Source: Pocillopora damicornis
Lineage: Eukaryota
Reading direction: 5' to 3'
Assembly (NCBI RefSeq): GCF_003704095.1
Contig: NW_020845038.1
Coordinates: forward strand, 1 to 64,000
Length of the DNA stretch: 64,000 bases
Shown here: positions 20,082 through 43,781 of the stretch, one piece after another
Position numbering within the stretch: position 1 is the stretch's first letter
How the letters are laid out: each line of letters starts with the position of its first letter
Made by a program: the position numbers and the translations under genes
Notes under the pieces: model-generated
Told to the model about the DNA's origin: nothing
What the model saw: only the letters and a program-made list of their open reading frames with translations
Databases searched by the model: none

Positions 20082-23253
<3,172 letters not shown>

Positions 23254-23447
23254 GTTAGGCTGTCTCGCTCCCAGTTGATTTGGTCGTTGATTCAGCTTCG
23301 TGTCAAGCTAAACTTTAAATGAAATGATGTTCAAATACCGGCAATTTATCTTGCTTTTTTGGTGAAAGAGGAAGCGAGCCACTAAGCTCAGCTTGGCGTG
23401 GTGCTAACAATAATCCTTAGAGGGGGATGAACAAATTGCCCTCCTCC

Positions 23448-23478: not shown

Positions 23479-25313
23479 AGGTTCACTCGTAGAATTCTCG
23501 TATGTTGTTCGGAACACGTCGGCTTATCTGACGCTTTCCCTCACGGAAGGGAATTTTTTAAGCCTTACGTAACTTTCAGATCGGTTATTTTTTTAATTTG
23601 GAAAAGCAGTCCTCAAATTTTTTTAATTCTCCTTTTTTGTTTTAGCGAAATATGGTAAAGAGAGCTGACATGGCAGGATAAGATATCAACAATTTCCCAA
23701 GTACCCATTAAACATTGTACGTTAATTGATCACAATCAGAAGCTTGCGTTTCGATAAAACAAAATATGCTTCATTGTCGCCAAATTCTGTCACAATATCG
23801 GGAAGGACAAAAGATTTTGTCATTTCCTCTCTAAAAAATTCTTCTAATTTTTTTATTTATTAACCAGTTGCTAATTTATGCCTTTCCGAATCATGCGTAC
23901 AAAATATGCTCACTCTTTGTCATTAAAAGGCCTTCTCCCGTGAGACGGCAGCCTTGAAATTTGCAAAATTTGTAAGTCTTGTATGAAGGCTTTATGTCTT
24001 ATGGCGATGAGGATCAAAGTATTATCGATATTTTATGATGTATTGTGACGTACTGTTAAAAGTTATGTCATATCAAGGTCCATGGTTTGCATCACGCGAT
24101 AAAAGGAAGGCCGAACAAAATAAAACTTTATTGTAGAGGGTCTGAGATATAACATACGTTCCTAATAAGCAAGAAACCTTGCATCGTTCTTTAGTGCCAC
24201 TCCTCCTCATGAAAAACTAAATTAATTTAAAGTCATTTGATAGAAATATAAATCTGCAATGTTTGTTTGTCGGTTTGACGCCATTATCTCTCGCTCGGAA
24301 TGTTAGGAGATTTAACACTCAAATGGCTTCTGAAATCACGAGTATTTGGCTTGTGATTTACAAATTTCTCTCGTGTTCTTCTCAGTCCCAAGTCACGTGG
24401 ATTACAAAAGCATTTAAAGCGATGGAAAATGCGTTCAATGGCTTACGTATTTTATCAGTCACCTCTCTGAGTCACTGGGGACGATGCAATTATTCTTCAA
24501 CTGAGTTAGTAAATTCATTTTGGATGTGCAAAAGAAACTAGATCAAAGGTCGATTAACACTTTCAAAATTAGAATGATTTGTCTCAGATAATTTAGAATT
24601 GATAATAAGTCATGGACAGTCTTCCTGATATATCATCGAAACGGAAATACCTCACTGTGATTACATGCGAACTATACTCTCTTGTTTGCTTTATTACCAG
24701 AGAGATTGAAAGTTATTTCGCTTCAGTTCCCTACAATAATTAGCCCTCAAAATCTACTCGTATCACAATAGTGCGCTCTGGTTCTAAAAAGAACTGAAAT
24801 ATTCGAAATATTTCGAACGTACGAAGACGAAAGTTTCATAAGAAAAGATATCGATCAAAAGTACAACGGAAAATTTACTCATCAAAATGGAATAAATACG
24901 CTGACGCACAAATATTTTTTTTCCCGTAAATGTATATACGCGCAAAGGCTATTGTCGAGTAACTTTTTCGCATTAACCTTTGACACCCTCTGATCAATAC
25001 GTGTATTCTCCGTACTGCTCTCTATTCATTTCCTATAGTACTGGCTTGGAGAAATTGTTTGACAATGACGATCTTCTTTAGTTGGTGATCGGGTTCCTTA
25101 TCCTCACGACCTTAGTGTTTGATTCAGCAGTAATGCTGTAATGAGAATTTAGATCCCAGTCACTAAAGGGTTTAACATTAACCAAATTTACTGGAGGGGT
25201 ATGAACATGATTATTTGTAAAGCGGTGCCTAAATATAGAGACACGAGTAACAGATGCACAGTTCCGCTCCCTAATCCAGAGTGCTGTCCTGCTCGCAAAG
25301 TCGAAGCTTTCTC

Positions 25314-26684
25314 TCACTCAGTCAACTTTTTCACCAGCGCCTCTGCCTCGCTAACCGCACTGCCGTCGACAATGTACCTGTCGACGAACGAATCATCAAA
25401 GCAGCTCGTTAAGAAGATCCTTGAAGGTTCCTCCTCCACTCTGTGGACCCTGAACACCTCATATGGTGGAAGCAGTACTTCATCCTCCTCGGGAAAAGCC
25501 GAAAGCATCTTAATGGAAGCTCCTATCCTAGTGACAATGACAAACTGACTTCCGTTCGATTTTTTCTGGAAGTCCTCTGCTACTTTGATATTACCGGTGG
25601 ATGAGGTGTAAGAGCCAAATCGTACTATTTGACTAGGTTTTGCGGTAAATCGTATGTTAACACCGCGGTAAACGATTCTTGTGCGACTTTCTTTGGGCGT
25701 GGCCGCGAGAATTTTCCGGCAAGCCTCTCGGAGAAGGTACGATAGAATTGGAAAATCCATGCCATCGCCAGTGTAACCTCTCCTGGTGTCGCTGTTGAAA
25801 TAGCGATACACAGGTGGATTCTCCAACGTGTAACAAATGACAGCGAAAATCTCGTCATCTGTCAGACCAGCGCGGCCAGAATTGATTTCAAGTGTTTCTT
25901 TCATTTGAGGCCATTTCTTCATGGCTTCTTCATATCCAGCGTGAATAAGAGCGTTCTTTTTACCCTCGTATGCCAATCCCCTCCTCATCATCGTCACCAT
26001 GATTTCACCGGGAAAGGACACAGCGAAGCTGCTTTCTGCAAGCCCCATTTGTATAACGTTCGCAAAGGTGGAGAACCTATTATATTCAGTCTCTGAAACT
26101 GCGGCTGGATGTATCACTTTCAGAGGAAAGAACCCTTCCGGCGGGATGTGGACGAAGGGATTCGTTTCAGTGCCTAAGTTAATCTGTACCCTCTCTCCTC
26201 TCATGAGGGACAAGCATGGATAGACAGCCCCCTCGAACGTTACTCCTGAAAAGGCGCAGCCCATTTCTCCTTCCCAATCACCGTTCAAACCGAAGCTAAC
26301 CTCTCCGTCTTCCAAATTGACAGCCATGCTAATCACATCACCAGCCTTCCACCGTCGGCCATATTGTTTTTTCTTATTATTGTGCCACTTCAAACCCCTC
26401 ATTCCGTCGTAGGCCCACGAATGCTGATCATCCCCACAGCCTTTGCCTTCGTCAGCTACGGCCGTAAAGCTTTCGTCTGCCCACCCAAGCTGCATGTAGC
26501 CGCCTGTATTTGTTTTGCATTCAAAATAAAACTTTCCTTGTGTTTGCCGAAGTGGTTTCAGCACTACAGTCGGAGCGGCGCGCTGCGCAAAGATTTCTAT
26601 CGGCGGGCCCTCCAGAATGACGGCTGCCTCTTGGTAGCTATCAGCTCCTTCGACTGTTGCCAAAGCTTTGTAGTCCATATCCAT
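25314..26684 (-). CDS. Intronless SPRY-domain + NAD:arginine ADP-ribosyltransferase (ARTC/R-S-E type) fusion, 456 aa
   Basis: N-terminal half: GKFYFEC..GYMQLGWA..GCGDDQHSWAYDG..W..GDVI..AVNLE..VSFGLNG..AF..VYPCLSL..INLG..PF (SPRY, RNF123/RSPRY1-like). C-terminal half: AVICYT..VYRYFN..R, VYRG (R340), VRFGSYTSST (S361), SAFPEEDEVLLPPYEVF (E400-x-E402). No N-terminal signal peptide or C-terminal hydrophobic GPI signal is visible. Confidence 0.92.
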   Translation of the reverse strand: MDMDYKALATVEGADSYQEAAVILEGPPIEIFAQRAAPTVVLKPLRQTQGKFYFECKTNTGGYMQLGWADESFTAVADEGKGCGDDQHSWAYDGMRGLKWHNNKKKQYGRRWKAGDVISMAVNLEDGEVSFGLNGDWEGEMGCAFSGVTFEGAVYPCLSLMRGERVQINLGTETNPFVHIPPEGFFPLKVIHPAAVSETEYNRFSTFANVIQMGLAESSFAVSFPGEIMVTMMRRGLAYEGKKNALIHAGYEEAMKKWPQMKETLEINSGRAGLTDDEIFAVICYTLENPPVYRYFNSDTRRGYTGDGMDFPILSYLLREACRKILAATPKESRTRIVYRGVNIRFTAKPSQIVRFGSYTSSTGNIKVAEDFQKKSNGSQFVIVTRIGASIKMLSAFPEEDEVLLPPYEVFRVHRVEEEPSRIFLTSCFDDSFVDRYIVDGSAVSEAEALVKKLTE

Positions 26685-28510
26685 GGTTCAGCCACTGTCT
26701 TTCTATATCACTAAGTTGAATGCTGCCAAAAGATTATTTCCACTTATCGCTCTATTGAAAGTTTGATGTTGCACGGAGCTCAATATTGAGTGCTCGTAAC
26801 TTTTGCGTGCATTATTTCACGCGCTTAACTATATAGGCAAAGGCCGTTTGCTCGATTTTCCCCGTAATTAGGAAGACTTTGTCTCTTCAGCGTATTCACG
26901 AGAACTCGGTGCGCCATTTATTTTTTCCTTATTTTGATACATACTCAGTATACCCTTTGATCCTTTGTTTTGGTATCTACGAGTCGCTAGTTATTCCCTT
27001 CGCGATTATAGGAAACGACGCGTAGCTAATCTGGTAATTGATGCATCTTTATTCATATATTTAAATTACAATTAAAATATTTTATCTTCTGTTAACAGTC
27101 AGTTATGTGCATACTTTAGTGGGGTTTATTTATGGTCACGACATTCTCCGGAACGGTTGAAAAAAAAAACCCACTGAAATGATGAAAATTATTATTATTT
27201 GCTCTTTATCATGCAAAATAGTTTCATTTGTGACTACTACTTCCTACCATGGAGGCGAAGCCACAATTAATGTTACCGAAATGAGTGAGTGAGTTACGGA
27301 GTCCTGGATGGTAAAGTAACAGTGGAAAGCAGAACTTCACCCGATTTTGACCCATGTCACTTAATGTTTATTTCGGAGTATCCTCTTAGATCGACATTCG
27401 CACTGGAGATCGTTATGCGCAGCATATACTAAAGAAAGAAGAATGCCTTCGAAACAAATTATTTTGTGCATAAGACAAAACAAGATGACATCTTGTCAGT
27501 TCTTGCCGTGACACTGCAGAATACGATAAACATCTCACTATCATTTCAGGATGCTGCGTGATTTAAGACAACATTTCCATGCAGGAATATCTGAAAAGGG
27601 GCGGTCAGCGCATCATGTTAAATTTTTTGAAAATTTATTTCTTTAAAGAATGAGGGTTTTACCGTTTGAATTAGCGAATTATGCCTGGTTGATTTCACAA
27701 ATAATTTCGGCGCGTAATTTAAAACAAACCTGCGAGGATCTCTTAAATTTGTTTCTTCACCGCAGTGCAAATATATGAATTTCATATATCTGAAATCATT
27801 AAAACAAACTTTTTCACTTGCAGTAATATCTACAAAGGTGTGATCTGCACATCGTGAAACCTTTGAGGGAAAATTTTTCTTTTTCGAAGAGAGAGCACTT
27901 TGCCATTTGAACCAGCGACTATCATTGCCCAAAAGAGGCGCTAAATAGGTCCGAAGTACCATACCTCGAGTATATTCGATGGAATGATGGAACGGTGGAA
28001 TGGCGGAATGACGGAATATCATAACGCACAATGCCTTGTTGTATGAAACAAACGTCCCACAAAAATCGAATTGCAATGAATTAAGAAAGTCATTTATGAT
28101 GTAAAGGGAAAATTAAAGAAAGGGTAGTTTACAACATGTAAGCTTTCATGTGATGTAAGTTTCATTAGATTTGGTTTCGAATTTCGCCGGATGAACTCAC
28201 ATTAAATTCATCTTTCGTTGTGCTTAACATAGAGAAAGGACGCTAAGCCCCTTTCTGTAAACTTTCGCCGTTTTTGTACGCGCCTAATTTTGCAATATAC
28301 TACTACATATAAGCTTGTAAGTTTCATTCGATTTCATAAATATCGACCAATACCACTCAGCAAAATTCACTCTGGTTTCGCTACACGCAAACTGACCATG
28401 ATCTTCGTGATATCAACATGTTTTATTTCATTTCATGCAACACTGAAATTCGCTATTCTTCTTGCATTTAACGGTTAACATTTCCTATACAATAGGATAT
28501 ATATATAATA

Positions 28511-36100: not shown

Positions 36101-39100
36101 GATGGTTGATCCATTGTTGTGTAATTCAGGCAGATTGCTTCTCTGTACATAACTCTCTTAGCTAACTAAGAGCCACTCTACAGCCACCCTCCTAATCTCC
36201 AAAAGAAAATCAGGAATTGATATTCTTTTGGAGGGTAGGGGGATTTTGAGAGTTAATCCTTCAAATCTGTCATTCTCCTTACTGTCAAACATACAATTCT
36301 TATAATGTTAGTTCTAAGAATTTAGGATTATCTCAACTGATTCTCCCCAAATTAATATTTTTCTTTATTCTCATAACTCATCTGGTTGATATTGTATTGA
36401 TATTGTAAGGAGAAATTATGTCTTGATCACACATGGGGGTTAAAGGGTTAAGAGAAAAAAGAGTGAGAAGAAAAGATATCAAGACAAGAACCTTTACTAA
36501 AAACATCAAAGTTGCATACATGTGTAGCGACTTTGCTTCTCTTAATAGAAAGAGGAATACCATTTATCAGCACTGGTATAATATTGTAAGGAGAAATTCT
36601 GTCTTGGTCACTAATGGAAGTTAGAGGCTTATAAAGGTTACATGAATATTTCTTACTTCTGACACCCAGTTGATATTCATTCCCTCTTTTATGTAAGTGG
36701 CATCCATTCTCAGATTGACTAGGAGCAAGTCAAAGTCAGCTTGCTTCAAAAGGAAGGAAATTAAAATAATATTAATTAAATAATAATTACTAGCACTTAA
36801 ATCAACAAAAAATTGTTCACAGTAGCAAAAAAAATTCATGTGAAAAAACGTGATTATAATACCTCAAGTTCTTTAATAAGAAGTGCTTCCTCCTTTGTGA
36901 TGTTCTTTACTCTTCCATTTCCAAGGTGTAAACTAACAGCCTGAAACAATGCATCAAACAATTTAAAAATAACTACCTACCATTACTTTTTTCTCTCTAA
37001 AGTCATATGATGATGAAAAAAAAACCAGTTATTATAATAACAATAACAAAAATGGCTCTTTTGTCCACTTTTCCATGGTAAAATCAGAAAGTGGAAAATT
37101 GGTTTTGAGAAGGGGAGGAGGTAACCAAGGGAACCAGAGAAAAACTCTCAGAACAAGGACAAGGCCCATCAACAAACTCAACCTGCCTCTGATGCCAAGT
37201 CTAAGAATCAAACCCTAATGGTAAGTTCCCATTTCCTCATTTCCTCAATCCTCATAGTAATTACTCAGAGGTCATATATGAACCAAAATGGAACAAAAAA
37301 TGACTCGACAAAAAACTACGCAAACAACAGTTACCTTGACAATTTCTTCAAGAGTGTTCTTAGACTCATCCACTGCCACCAGATAGCGTACTTTGGGATT
37401 CTGATCACAAATATTCACAATTACTGCTGCCAGGTCTTTGATGTGGATGGTGGGTACAATATTTTGGCCATTGCCAAAACACTGCAATGCAGGTGCCTGA
37501 CCATGCCATGCTGTTTTAAACAGAAAGTGAAAGATGTCCTCTCCTGATCCATATGTTAAACCTGCTGCCACAACGTAAGTGATAAACTTGGACTTGTTTG
37601 TTTTTCCATGTTTGATGACAAGCTTCTCTGCACTGATGTGGGATTTGAAGTTTGGATGGGCTCTCCTGCGGCGGTAGTCATCCTCCGTGAATGATATCTC
37701 TGGGTCATCCTGTGTGAATGCAAATGAAAAATTATTACTGAAAATTAACATATTGTCATTATTTCCTTCACGATTTTGCAAGAATATCATGGTCTCCAAG
37801 GTGAAAAACAAAACATCACAACCAAGAAATAGATTGTGTGGTCAATAGTCCATTTTACAGTTGTGTGCTTGGTTGCCAAGCCTTTGAACAGGAATGAGGC
37901 TAAGGGTGACCTTGTTATGATACAAACCTTGCTGCTTTTCAAATGCAAATTACTTTGTTATCATGCTAACTAGATACTGGTCTCTATCACAACAAGGTCA
38001 CCTTCAGCCTCACTCCAAATCAAAGGCTTGGCAACTAAGTAAACAACTGTAAAATGGCCTATTAGTTGACAGGAAACTTTGAATTTGTACAATGAATATA
38101 GTAGTGCCAAGGGAAACAGTGAACTTCCTTTGGGTAGAGTGTACATTTTTTTTAAGTTTGTACTTTTCTTGAAGGTTTCAATTAAATTGTAAAAGAATAA
38201 GAGCAAGACAACCATGAAAACTCACAGGATCAAGTGGTTTGCTTCTTGCCCATGTCATCACAGTTGATAAACAAATGAATACTTTCAATGTGTTAAAATT
38301 CTCCAGTTCTGCATGAAGGGCTGCAAAAGGATCATATATATGACACTATGAATGCTTCATTCCCAAAGTTTTGAAAGAGTTTTCTTCTAACTTAAATAAC
38401 AATGAATTTCTTGAATAACTTAATTGAGTGTTGTGAATTTGATGACATATCTAAATACACCAAAGATCAATTTGATAATTTTCTTAATTCTTATTTTCTG
38501 TGTGATAAAAGTTCTAAAATTATTAGGATAATTAAACTGCTGATCACTTCTGAAGGAAAAGGGTTAAGCTAAATTATTCAGAGGCAATGTAAGTCATCTG
38601 AGCAGTTTTAGATTGAATTAAGGATGACAACTTTTTGTTCTACAGATGCTGCTCAATTTCTGGTACTTCAAATAAGATTACTGATTTAAAAGAAGATGAG
38701 AGTGGTCATTGTAGTTATGAACACCACTAAAGGAGTGATGAAAACAAAACTTGAAAGAAAAAAAAATAAGGCCTGTACAGAAGTTGAACCCAAGACTGGC
38801 TGTTTAAAACCTAGATAACTTGTTTTAATCACCTGAGTTGATAATGTACATTGACCAATATAAAATGTTTTTGAAGCTGACAATTAGTGTTAGTCCCTGG
38901 TCATTTGCTCTGAAAGTAATAAAACTACCAAGGCAGCATTTTGACAGAGCTGTGGTACAGTACCACAGCTCTGTCAAAAACTAACCCTCTTTATCCATTC
39001 ACTGTTTAAAACTTAGCTGGGCTGAATTTTAATTCAATTGATTGAAGGTTAGTCAGAAAAAAAAACATGAATAATGTAGAAACCAATCCCCTGCCTAGCC

Positions 39101-40538: not shown

Positions 40539-43500
40539 ATGGCTTCGTCAACGGACCAAAGCTCAGTGAAAACGATGCCGTCTTCTCGAGGACTTGGATC
40601 TATTTCAGACCTCAAAAACCTCTTTCCTACGAAAACACACTTTTTGATTTTCGTAGGGTACATGGCCCTATTTATAAGCCAAGGTCTGTGGGCTAACTTA
40701 CCACACTTAATTCGTTTCCTTATTCTCAATAAACAAAAAAACCTCGTTAATTGATTTCGCAGTATTGGCTTTTTCTTACTTGATATTTGTGGTATAGTAC
40801 AATATATTCTTTGTTATGCTCGACATGTGTCACAGTAATTAATATTGGCCGCTTTTTTTCCGACAGGCATCCTTGTTACAGCAACTAAAGACAAAAGCAA
40901 CCACTACTCTTATAATACTGTCACTGTGGTTCTACTGACGGAATTCGTCAAACTCATAATTGCCGTAGGAATTCAGCTTCAAACGTAGGTGTATTAAAAT
41001 TATAATTAAACATATCGTGTTTTAAAGCAGTTTTACATGCATATAATATCTTGCAAGGCTTGTATATGTTTGTATATTGTGATCAGCTGGATGTGTACTG
41101 TGAAGGTGTTGTTGTCAGCGTGAAAGCACACACTTGAAAAGCACCATAAAATTGAAATCGCTTTGTTTCTGTTTAGATCTACCTTCGGGGAGTTCTTGCA
41201 GCATGTCCGATCTAATGTTAAAGGTATTTTTCTGTTTTTTTTCTTATCCTTACAATTAAAATAGTCCTGTTGTGGCTAGAAGTCCCCTAAAGTTCAAAGT
41301 AAATGATTAAATTTGAGATTATTTGGTGATTGTGTGAAATCAGTGTTAAAGGTAATTGAAAATTTACCTGCACACGAGTATTTTCTTTGATTTTAGACCC
41401 TTGCCTTGACACTGTAAATTGGGCATCTTGAAATCTTGTAAATTGTCAAATAGACATCAACTTGTTTTAAATTAATTAGCAAAAAATTTACTTGTTAACC
41501 TTTTTCCCTGAGATCTTTCCCATCTGATGTTAATATATACCACTCACTATGGCACTTTCTTGGAGATAAATCTATTTGTCAAGGAGAAATATAAAGATGT
41601 AGACTAGCTTTATTTAAAAGATATACACATGCTTAATGTTGCCTCTTTTCTCTGATTTTGTCTCTAGTGCTGGTACTTTATGTGGTGCCTTCTTTCATGT
41701 ACTGTCTCTACAACAACTTGGCTTTTGTGAATTTAGCCAACTATGACCCAACAACTTACTACCTCCTGCTGCAGTTTAGAGTTGTGGTAACTGGAGTTAT
41801 CTTTCAGGTAATAATGCAGGCAATAACTCTGTTTAATCTATTATAATCTCTTTTCTGTTTTATTTTTCCAGGCAAAGCTGATAAGTTTTGGACACCTCTG
41901 ATTAAATTTGTTTTGCTAATCTTACCATCACATTTTTTAAAGTCAGATAGGGAAATTTTTCTTTGGGGAAATTTTAAAAAATCTGACAAATATGGTTCTT
42001 TTGCTTAGAAATCAGAAATTGAGCATTCTTTAAGATTTCATATGTAGTCATGGGAAAAACCACCTAATTAGCATTTCAAATTTTGGAAGAATTCTTCTAA
42101 TATTGGATGGTTGCTCTGCCAATTTTTTTGGAAATGATTTAGTCAATATTAGTTTTAACACATGTTCCACATGCATATTTGTTTTCAGATAAGTTTTAGA
42201 GTTTTACACCTTTCAGTGAAACAACAAATCAGTGAAGTTACTCCCTCCTTAAGGGTTTTCTGCCCATAAGCAATTAGTAATGAAACTATAGTGCGGAAAA
42301 TCAAGATTTTGATTTCACTAATAGTGAAAGCTTTCCTTTGGAACACCTCAACTCATTAATTTTTTTTTCCGGTGATTAATTATTAACAAACTCCAGCCTA
42401 ACATCAATCCATTAGACTTCTCTTTTCAAAGGACACTTGCCAGTCCCTGAGGGCATCCCCTTCAGGGGAGTTCCACTGTGATTTCATGTCTTGTTTAGGG
42501 CAGTGCCTCTTTTCAACCAAGAGATGCAAGTCCTGATTTTTTTATAAATGAGACATTGTTATCCATGCCTGTCAGGATATGTTCAAATTCTCATTTGGTC
42601 CTTCACCTTACAAAAGGAAACTTATGCCACAATGTGTTTTGGGATTTAGAAAAAGTTTTTCTTTTGTTTCCAAATTTTTGCTACTAGTCATGGTGATCAG
42701 AATGGTAACAGCTCGGAGCTCTGAACCTAAATGTTCATCTTACTTAACCCTTTAACTCCCATGAGTGACCGAGACAAAATTTCTCCCTACAATATCGATA
42801 CAATATCAAGCAGACAAGTGATGAGAATAAAGAAAAATACCAGTTAATCAGTTAAGGGATAATAAGTTGATCCAATACCAAATTCTCCAAACTAACATTA
42901 CAAGAACTGTATGACAGACAGTAAGGAGAATTACTAATGAGATCATGGTAGTTAAAGGGTTAAACTTAAAACTTGGTGATTCAGTAAATGGAACTCTTAA
43001 TTTATTTATACTATGCAAACTGGGATCAGCTTGAATTGCAAGAGCTGCTGGGCTTGAGGATAGATTTGACCTAATCCACTAAGAAGAGAGAATTATTGAT
43101 CAGATCTTTTGAATTAAAAGTGTTTAAGAACTTACCTGTATTTTTTTCTTGCAGATATTGTTTAGTAAAAAGCTGAGTGGGCTTCAGTGGGTATCTTTGC
43201 TGTTGCTAACATCTGGTTGTATCATCAAGCAGATCAAATTTGAGAACCTTGCAGCAGGAAGTAGCTCTTTCTCCATACAGTTTGACATTCATCTTCTGTT
43301 AATCCTTGTCCAAGTGTTTTGTTCCTGTTTTGCTGGTGTTTATAATGAGTATTTGTTAAAGGGTAAAGGTGGTGATGTGCCATTTATGGTTCAGAATTTT
43401 TTCATGTATGTAGACTCAGTCTTGTGTAATTTTGCCGTTCTCTGGTACAATGGCACATTATCTGATGCATTTACTGGAGAAAGCCTAGCATCCATTGCCA

Positions 43501-43781
43501 GAGGTAAAGTTTTGGCCATTATTTTCAATAATGCTGGCATTGGCATAACCACAGCATTGTTCCTGAAGCAGCTGAATTCTATTCTTAAGACTTTTGCTAG
43601 TGCACTAGAGATCATGTTCACTGCTGTATTGTGCTGGATTATCTTTGGAATTCCAGTTGATATTTTCACGTTCGTTGCCATTGCTATTGTTTCTTACGCA
43701 GTAATTCTTTATGCTCATAATCCTGTAGATAACACACCTAAGCCTGTAGAGGGCAATCAGAAATCAAACACTAGTGTTTAG
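40539..43781 (+). CDS. senju: SLC35A-family nucleotide-sugar transporter, senju-like (UDP-galactose), 5 exons
   Basis: Approximate exons: 40539-40683, 40867-40984, 41177-41223, 41669-41807, 43155-43781. LFPTKTHFLIFVGYMALFISQG, YNTVTVVLLTEFVKL, LYVVPSFMYCLYNNLAFVNL..DPTTYYLLLQ.RVVVTG, CSCFAGVYNEYLLK and LNSILKTFASALE resemble Drosophila senju as I recall it. Confidence 0.88.
42744..42963. mobile_element. TTAA/piggyBac-type MITE (intact ends)
   Basis: TTAACCCTTTAACTCCC...GTAGTTAAAGGGTTAA. Confidence 0.8.

Follow-up and report, generated by a model that had tools for sequence, protein, structure and literature searches.

An intronless gene of Pocillopora damicornis encodes a SPRY-ART fusion protein

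The window analysed here, a stretch of 64,000 nucleotides from Pocillopora damicornis (contig NW_020845038.1), contains an intronless ORF of 456 aa on the minus strand (25314..26684) that joins an N-terminal SPRY domain (Pfam PF00622) to an ADP-ribosyltransferase (ART) domain at its C-terminal end (Pfam PF01129), just as an initial annotation of this DNA had read it. The DNA around the gene is low in GC and rich in introns. A spliced Rab1 gene adjoins it downstream (21025-23374, minus strand), and adenylate kinase 7 lies upstream on the same strand (37272-37790, with exons down to about 29540), to which the nearer upstream exons would also belong. Exons of a flavin amine oxidoreductase (2609-3076, minus strand) and of a nucleotide-sugar transporter (43386-43781, plus strand) are ordinary content of the same window.

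An in-frame TGA stands two codons 5' of the ATG (26688..26690, minus strand), ruling out an unspliced N-terminal extension, and a sequence scan found no strong splice acceptor near the start codon. The SPRY-ART stretch was present in 20 of 21 sequencing runs among the matches listed, 12 of them recorded as RNA, and eight were compared; the kind of run X15 is unrecorded, and it may be source DNA. In X1, X5 and X6, from three studies, a single co-linear stretch of contig takes in the whole ORF and 241-357 bases upstream of it; in X7, from a fourth study, two overlapping pieces do so. The ORF is covered in a single piece in X9 and X13 and in three pieces in X2. Co-linear contigs, which show neither strand nor true ends, span 24479..27041 at their widest (minus strand, as taken from the ORF). 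Hardly any RNA contig cover reaches the flanking bins 23672-24005 and 27012-27345, and none of the RNA joints listed touches the gene. The initial annotation had allowed that the gene might be silent or might acquire a signal peptide from an upstream exon; it is transcribed, with unspliced RNA contigs from four studies, and no such exon was seen. The region 26685-27200 upstream of the ORF is rich in CpG (observed/expected 1.36, versus 0.48 in the window and 0.93 in the ORF), and a short block within it at about 26962-27031 was also matched in the related loci L002 and L007.

The ART domain retains an arginine-type catalytic centre

The ART match of PF01129 covers aa 239-428 (E 1.4e-30, far above the cut-off), and together with the alignment and the predicted fold it delimits an ARTC-type ADP-ribosyltransferase domain, with a helical lobe and a beta core, at aa 217-449 (25338..26036, minus strand). 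In an AlphaFold2 model built from a 40-sequence alignment (pLDDT 83.3, pTM 0.74), the best match of this part among 48,161 solved chains was rat ART2.2 (Z 19.9, rmsd 2.7, 203 residues aligned), ahead of the bacterial effectors Tre1 (Z 16.0), HopU1 (15.8) and ExoS (14.2). The R-S-ExE signature behind the earlier label of a toxin-like ART is real, but the label itself is loose, since the fold is nearer to ART2.2 than to the bacterial effectors. Likewise, the two domains proposed at aa 30-190 and 265-430 are both present, but the fold places their limits wider, at about 1-195 and 217-449.

The catalytic residues lie exactly where the initial annotation had put them. R340 in VYRG, the arginine of R-S-E (25665..25667, minus strand), and S361 in YTSST, the first serine of the STS-type motif (25602..25604, minus strand), correspond to R126 and S147 of ART2.2, and both are invariant in 40/40 members. 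The ARTT loop S395-A-F397-P-E-E400-D-E402 (25479..25502, minus strand, from the alignment of 40 members) matches the X-X-aromatic-X-X-E-X-E pattern of arginine-specific members, with E400 and E402 invariant and phenylalanine or tyrosine at position 397 in all 40, and the full catalytic motif pattern was found in all 44 homologs tested (P0002-P0045). When aligned with rat ART2.2 (1gxy), E402 falls on E189, the residue altered in the 1og4 chain, and E400 falls on Q187. C121 and C173 of ART2.2, which lie beside the strands of the active site and which we take to be a disulfide pair, align to T335 and R386, the latter position being lysine or arginine in 40/40. NCBIfam gave a weak XopAI stretch alone, far below its cut-off. 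In the Atlas, chordate and rotifer PF01129 clusters were matched by the ART part at 0.94, and the whole protein gave no usable match; in view of the rotifer clusters, ART2-like enzymes that act inside cells may be more widespread, which would make SPRY-ART less surprising. By these features SPRY-ART is a member of the arginine-type ARTC, or R-S-E, catalytic class, with predicted enzymatic activity.

Rat ART2.2, the closest solved relative, is mostly an NADase, and many ARTCs hydrolyse NAD+ without an acceptor. SPRY-ART might thus be an NAD+ glycohydrolase or a self-modifier, yielding free ADP-ribose or lowering NAD+ at the site where its SPRY domain is anchored. We consider this a rather poor prospect, because the position held by Q187 in ART2.2 is E400 in 40/40 members, a glutamate that goes with transfer to arginine by the ARTT rule (an arginine acceptor is marked by a glutamate in position 6, according to the available part of PMC7827354), and the aromatic ARTT residue for substrate contact is also retained in 40/40.

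The SPRY domain is closest to the RyR/DDX1/Ash2L/RanBP9 type

The N-terminal half forms a SPRY beta-sandwich at aa 1-195 (26100..26684, minus strand), as supported by Pfam, sequence and fold, with the Pfam core at aa 51-172 (26169-26534, E 4.9e-25, far above the cut-off). Its nearest relative by sequence is RyR SPRY2. By fold, Ash2L and DDX1 come first (Z 22.7), with Ash2L, DDX1 and RyR at 20-23 and TRIM67 at 19.4, whereas pyrin (13.1) and TRIM5alpha (13.0) are far lower, and Pfam found no PRY domain in the protein. Sequence and model thus both place this SPRY closest to the RyR/DDX1/Ash2L/RanBP9 type, distant from that of TRIM5 or pyrin. The Foldseek list for the protein was filled by SPRY domains. 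Between the two domains lies a variable linker (aa 191-222; 26019..26114, minus strand) that evolves roughly two times as fast as SPRY or ART and has low model confidence, mainly at about aa 205-217. A complex prediction of inter-domain packing scored 0.00 with the alignment unused, and is evidence neither way.

Seven residues, F32, Q34, R35, K81, N103, R162 and R165, are kept here and not in related SPRY domains, as judged against a comparison set chosen with the family motif; their conservation is as expected for a fixed partner. Among 20 long related-SPRY ORFs, taken by length from 72 loci and so not a random sample, Pfam found HECT in four, UBA in four, SDE2 in five, DUF3638/3645 in two, Arm, Vps62 and WWE in one each, and SPRY alone in two. 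In the SDE2 cases (L016, L019, L023, L028 and L032), which are splicing regulators, the SPRY domain lies inside the protein.

The basic members of this set (R35, K81, R162 and R165) are also what one might expect if the acceptor were a nucleic acid, a nucleotide or another small molecule in place of a protein arginine, and R-S-E enzymes such as ScARP apply the same ARTT loop to guanine (PMC7827354, as far as its available text goes). Position 6 is, however, a glutamine in ScARP and a glutamate in SPRY-ART (same source, same part), and the fold is closest to the arginine-type ART2.2, so that we rate a non-protein acceptor as very unlikely.

SPRY-ART is a single-copy family of patchy distribution

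A first homolog search returned 46 proteins at 47-99% identity, 43 of which carry both SPRY and ART, the nearest named one being from Oculina patagonica (83% identical). The named members span corals (Oculina and five Acropora species), anemones (Nematostella and Actinia), jellyfish (Rhopilema and Sanderia) and a brittle star (Amphiura filiformis), and are annotated as uncharacterised or with an automatic enzyme name. A profile search added fragments and one SPRY-only protein, nothing more. Three more proteins came from the best 150 matches of a wide search of 1.84 billion representatives: P0087 at 44% identity, P0088 at 34-47% depending on the segment, and P0102. All three retain an R-S-ExE pattern. 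P0102, a metagenome protein (1484 aa, Ank-DEP-SPRY-SPRY-ART), represents a second, larger design combining SPRY and ART. No vertebrate, insect or nematode SPRY-ART was found among the named matches (the best 150 in the wide search), and the named ART-only matches of the family profile were bird ARTCs among the matches listed. Longer fusions of the ART half were sought in 642 candidates of 799-2280 aa and none was found, which is weak evidence as the distant P0102 is one.

A quick, unrooted tree of 41 rows set medusozoans and anthozoans apart from each other and from a group of three Amphiura sequences, a topology compatible with vertical descent; rooting by P0087 and P0088 failed on their long branches. 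A break at T60/G61 is common to an old Nematostella model and the ORF pair of a medusozoan-clade contig, and would reflect a shared intron later lost in corals, as judged from protein models. Recent transfer from bacteria or viruses was confirmed for none of 66 prokaryote-genome and 27 viral-contig candidates from pattern scans, which reach solely relatives retaining both patterns.

P0087, at 44% identity and on a long branch, is a divergent member. P0088, P0134 and the locus L009 (1-914) make up a divergent subfamily, in which P0088 is intact with low-complexity inserts and the L009 copy, carrying in-frame stops, frameshifts and a lysine replacing D/E between the loop glutamates, has likely decayed. 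At about 8340 in L007 lies a syntenic ortholog with one frameshift in the SPRY part, either an assembly error or a broken allele.

In its own genome the gene gave one match by the ART half and one by Pfam family, and the SPRY half matched itself and one SPRY exon at 39%, the copy counts being lower bounds for intron-split genes. L002 and L007 show the same gene order, adenylate kinase 7 - SPRY-ART - Rab1; of eight family loci, these two alone gave flanking matches. The Acropora cervicornis gene also has a Rab1A neighbour. The Acropora model KAK2567321.1 fuses the back half of Rab1A to SPRY-ART; no listed RNA joint links the two genes, and the fusion is probably a gene-model error that still displays the shared gene order.

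Both domains evolve under strong constraint

For six coral coding sequences, the whole-domain omega (dN/dS) was 0.077 in SPRY and 0.084 in ART, against 0.086 for the complete sequence; two of the eight sequences were left out of the codon model, L007 for its frameshift and L008 for saturation. Over 34 full-length rows of 40, the linker reached a protein tree length of 14.17, compared with 6.98 in SPRY and 6.91 in ART. RNA-run variation comprised 13 differences in three runs, nine of them silent. At window position 25501, one X2 RNA contig (depth 6) reads S395L in a residue otherwise kept in 40/40; this might represent a rare allele or simply an error. Two changes within SPRY, S119C and G147R, are carried by two near-identical database variants.

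The initial annotation had envisaged a sensor-effector whose SPRY selects a pathogen, symbiont or host target, citing TRIM5 and pyrin among SPRY proteins of innate immunity, and had proposed a paralog count and dN/dS as checks. Neither check favours an arms race: no expansion was seen, the own genome giving one match, and SPRY is as constrained as ART. Expression data are compatible with this. Supplement 3 of a cyclic-dinucleotide study (PMC8713801) has 8 differential-expression sheets, with 6,394 rows for cGAMP-treated polyps, and its cGAMP tables show strong induction of PARP12 and PARP4; the Nematostella ortholog (GeneID 5504108) is in none of the 8 sheets, which represent one stimulus class and from which a gene may be absent through low expression. 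Single copy, synteny, low dN/dS in both domains, a SPRY distant from those of TRIM5 and pyrin and absence from the cGAMP tables together weaken the arms-race reading.

The sensor idea may survive in a form in which the molecule recognised does not vary. The protein would then be a constitutive immune sensor-effector: once an invariant molecule of microbial origin or released by damage is bound by SPRY, the ART domain would be licensed to act on a protein of the pathogen, or on one of the host that sets off cell death. An invariant ligand would likewise yield low dN/dS, Tre1, HopU1 and ExoS are neighbours by fold, and the patchy range with broken and fast-evolving members fits conflict genes, which are often lost, and counts against a core housekeeping enzyme. 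Nevertheless, the gene is not expanded, the SPRY rate is no higher than that of ART, none of the four non-silent RNA-run changes falls in SPRY, the domain is distant from those of TRIM5alpha and pyrin, and the ortholog is missing from tables that list PARP induction. We regard this form of the sensor idea as unlikely.

SPRY-ART is likely an intracellular protein

Hydropathy gave no hydrophobic leader, membrane span or tail: the best 19-residue window scored 1.19 (at most 1.60 across 40 members) and the C-terminal 30 residues 0.64 (at most 1.22 across 40 members). The absence of a signal peptide and GPI tail claimed by the initial annotation is therefore upheld by hydropathy, the upstream stop and the unspliced RNA. 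Lack of an export signal makes intracellular action likely, and with the missing ART2.2 cysteines added, the evidence supports the earlier placement of the protein as likely intracellular. Eukaryotic ARTCs are defined as extracellular in the available part of PMC9027952, which leaves open the identity of an intracellular arginine writer, and animal enzymes of the arginine-ART class are not normally intracellular.

Stinging animals are most of the named carriers, and R-S-E enzymes are common as toxins (PMC7827354), which raises the idea that SPRY-ART is a toxin or part of the venom, released by a route that needs no signal peptide. This is extremely improbable in our view, as the protein has no leader, its gene is single-copy and under strong purifying selection, the brittle star carrier has no stinging cells, and no link of such a protein to venom was found in the literature searched.

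A predicted cytosolic writer of arginine ADP-ribosylation

The explanation that we favour, and to which we would give about an even chance on sequence evidence, is that SPRY-ART is conserved as a writer in the cytosol, placing ADP-ribose reversibly on arginine in a host partner that is conserved as well. With neither leader nor anchor and lacking the ART2.2 cysteine pair, the protein would stay in the cytosol or nucleus. The intact, invariant R-S-E triad and ARTT loop would bind NAD+ and cleave off nicotinamide with the help of E402, and E400, at ARTT position 6, would hold the guanidinium of arginine as the acceptor. The SPRY domain, on its variable linker and with its family-specific basic and polar residues, would bring in a scaffold or the substrate itself; the SPRY domains most closely related to it are often found in ubiquitin-system proteins. 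Finally, an ARH1-like product would remove the mark, completing a reversible writer-eraser pair.

A candidate for this eraser lies at G000:C593, where an exon resembles ARH1 (E 4e-32 against human ADP-ribosylarginine hydrolase) and carries SDD and DSDS motifs. Loci of the ARH family number at least four in this genome, including one ARH1-like and one ARH3-like. Those at G000:C538 (L086, L090) and G000:C881 (L087, L089, L091) have their best match in neither ARH1 nor ARH3, and show weak matches to DraG-type and archaeal MJ1187 proteins. The ARH1-like gene lends weak support to the pairing, since it is unlinked to the SPRY-ART gene and ARH1 is widespread in animals. The patchy range and the broken or divergent members (P0087, L009 and L007) count against the writer as we describe it, and so do the SPRY changes S119C and G147R of the database variants.

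No description of the SPRY-ART protein or its architecture was found in the non-subscription literature searched, and a search by accession returned 0 matches, so that the earlier impression of a family not yet characterised stands within that literature. Two coral papers mention SPRY, both on other genes as far as their available parts go; SPRY partner domains are catalogued without ART in the available part of PMC8195603, the word SPRY is absent from that of PMC3482391, and the text supplements of PMC13319465, small and uninformative files, contain no SPRY-ART match.

A more far-reaching proposal, which we hold to be doubtful, is that SPRY-ART is an ancient cytosolic arginine-ART family of animals that predates the cnidarian-bilaterian split and is perhaps older, with ARH1 as its partner, a target in the ubiquitin system, and the precursor state of the ecto-ARTs. 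If this were true, vertebrate ecto-ARTs would have been exported later from an intracellular state that SPRY-ART kept. The mammalian signal would not be explained by SPRY-ART alone, because no vertebrate member was found among the named matches. SPRY-ART offers a clear candidate for an ARTC that animals would use inside the cell. It lends itself to study, being single-copy, having a targeting domain of its own, and having an ortholog (XP_032228268.1) in Nematostella, a species in which genes are routinely knocked out. It would let cytosolic arginine ADP-ribosylation and the ARH1 eraser be tested as a pair in an early-branching animal.

Comparison with known systems

The B30.2 domains of TRIM5alpha and pyrin share the beta-sandwich superfamily with the N-terminal domain (Z about 13, 14-17% identity, with TRIM67 as high as 19.4), but SPRY-ART gave no Pfam PRY match, has neither RING nor coiled coil, and showed no sign of expanding or evolving fast. 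The SPRY adaptors RyR, DDX1, Ash2L and RanBP9/10 are the best sequence and fold matches of this domain, yet none of them is joined to an ART, and the family-specific residues differ. On the ART side, the bacterial effectors Tre1 (6drh), HopU1 (3u0j), XopAI (6k94) and ExoS (6gn0) have R-S-ExE and act inside cells, with Z of 14-16; their identity to SPRY-ART is 14-18%, and SPRY-ART is encoded by the host, in a gene for which an old intron position is predicted. Vertebrate ecto-ARTs, as represented by rat ART2.2, have a signal peptide and a GPI anchor or secretion, neither of which was detected here by hydropathy, and are single-domain enzymes with the C121/C173 pair (in ART2.2), whereas SPRY-ART has an N-terminal SPRY domain and no such pair. 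Judged from its predicted protein, SPRY-ART thus departs from the vertebrate ecto-ARTs in four defining features, although it shares with ART2.2 the fold including the helical lobe, 29% identity and the R-S-E geometry.
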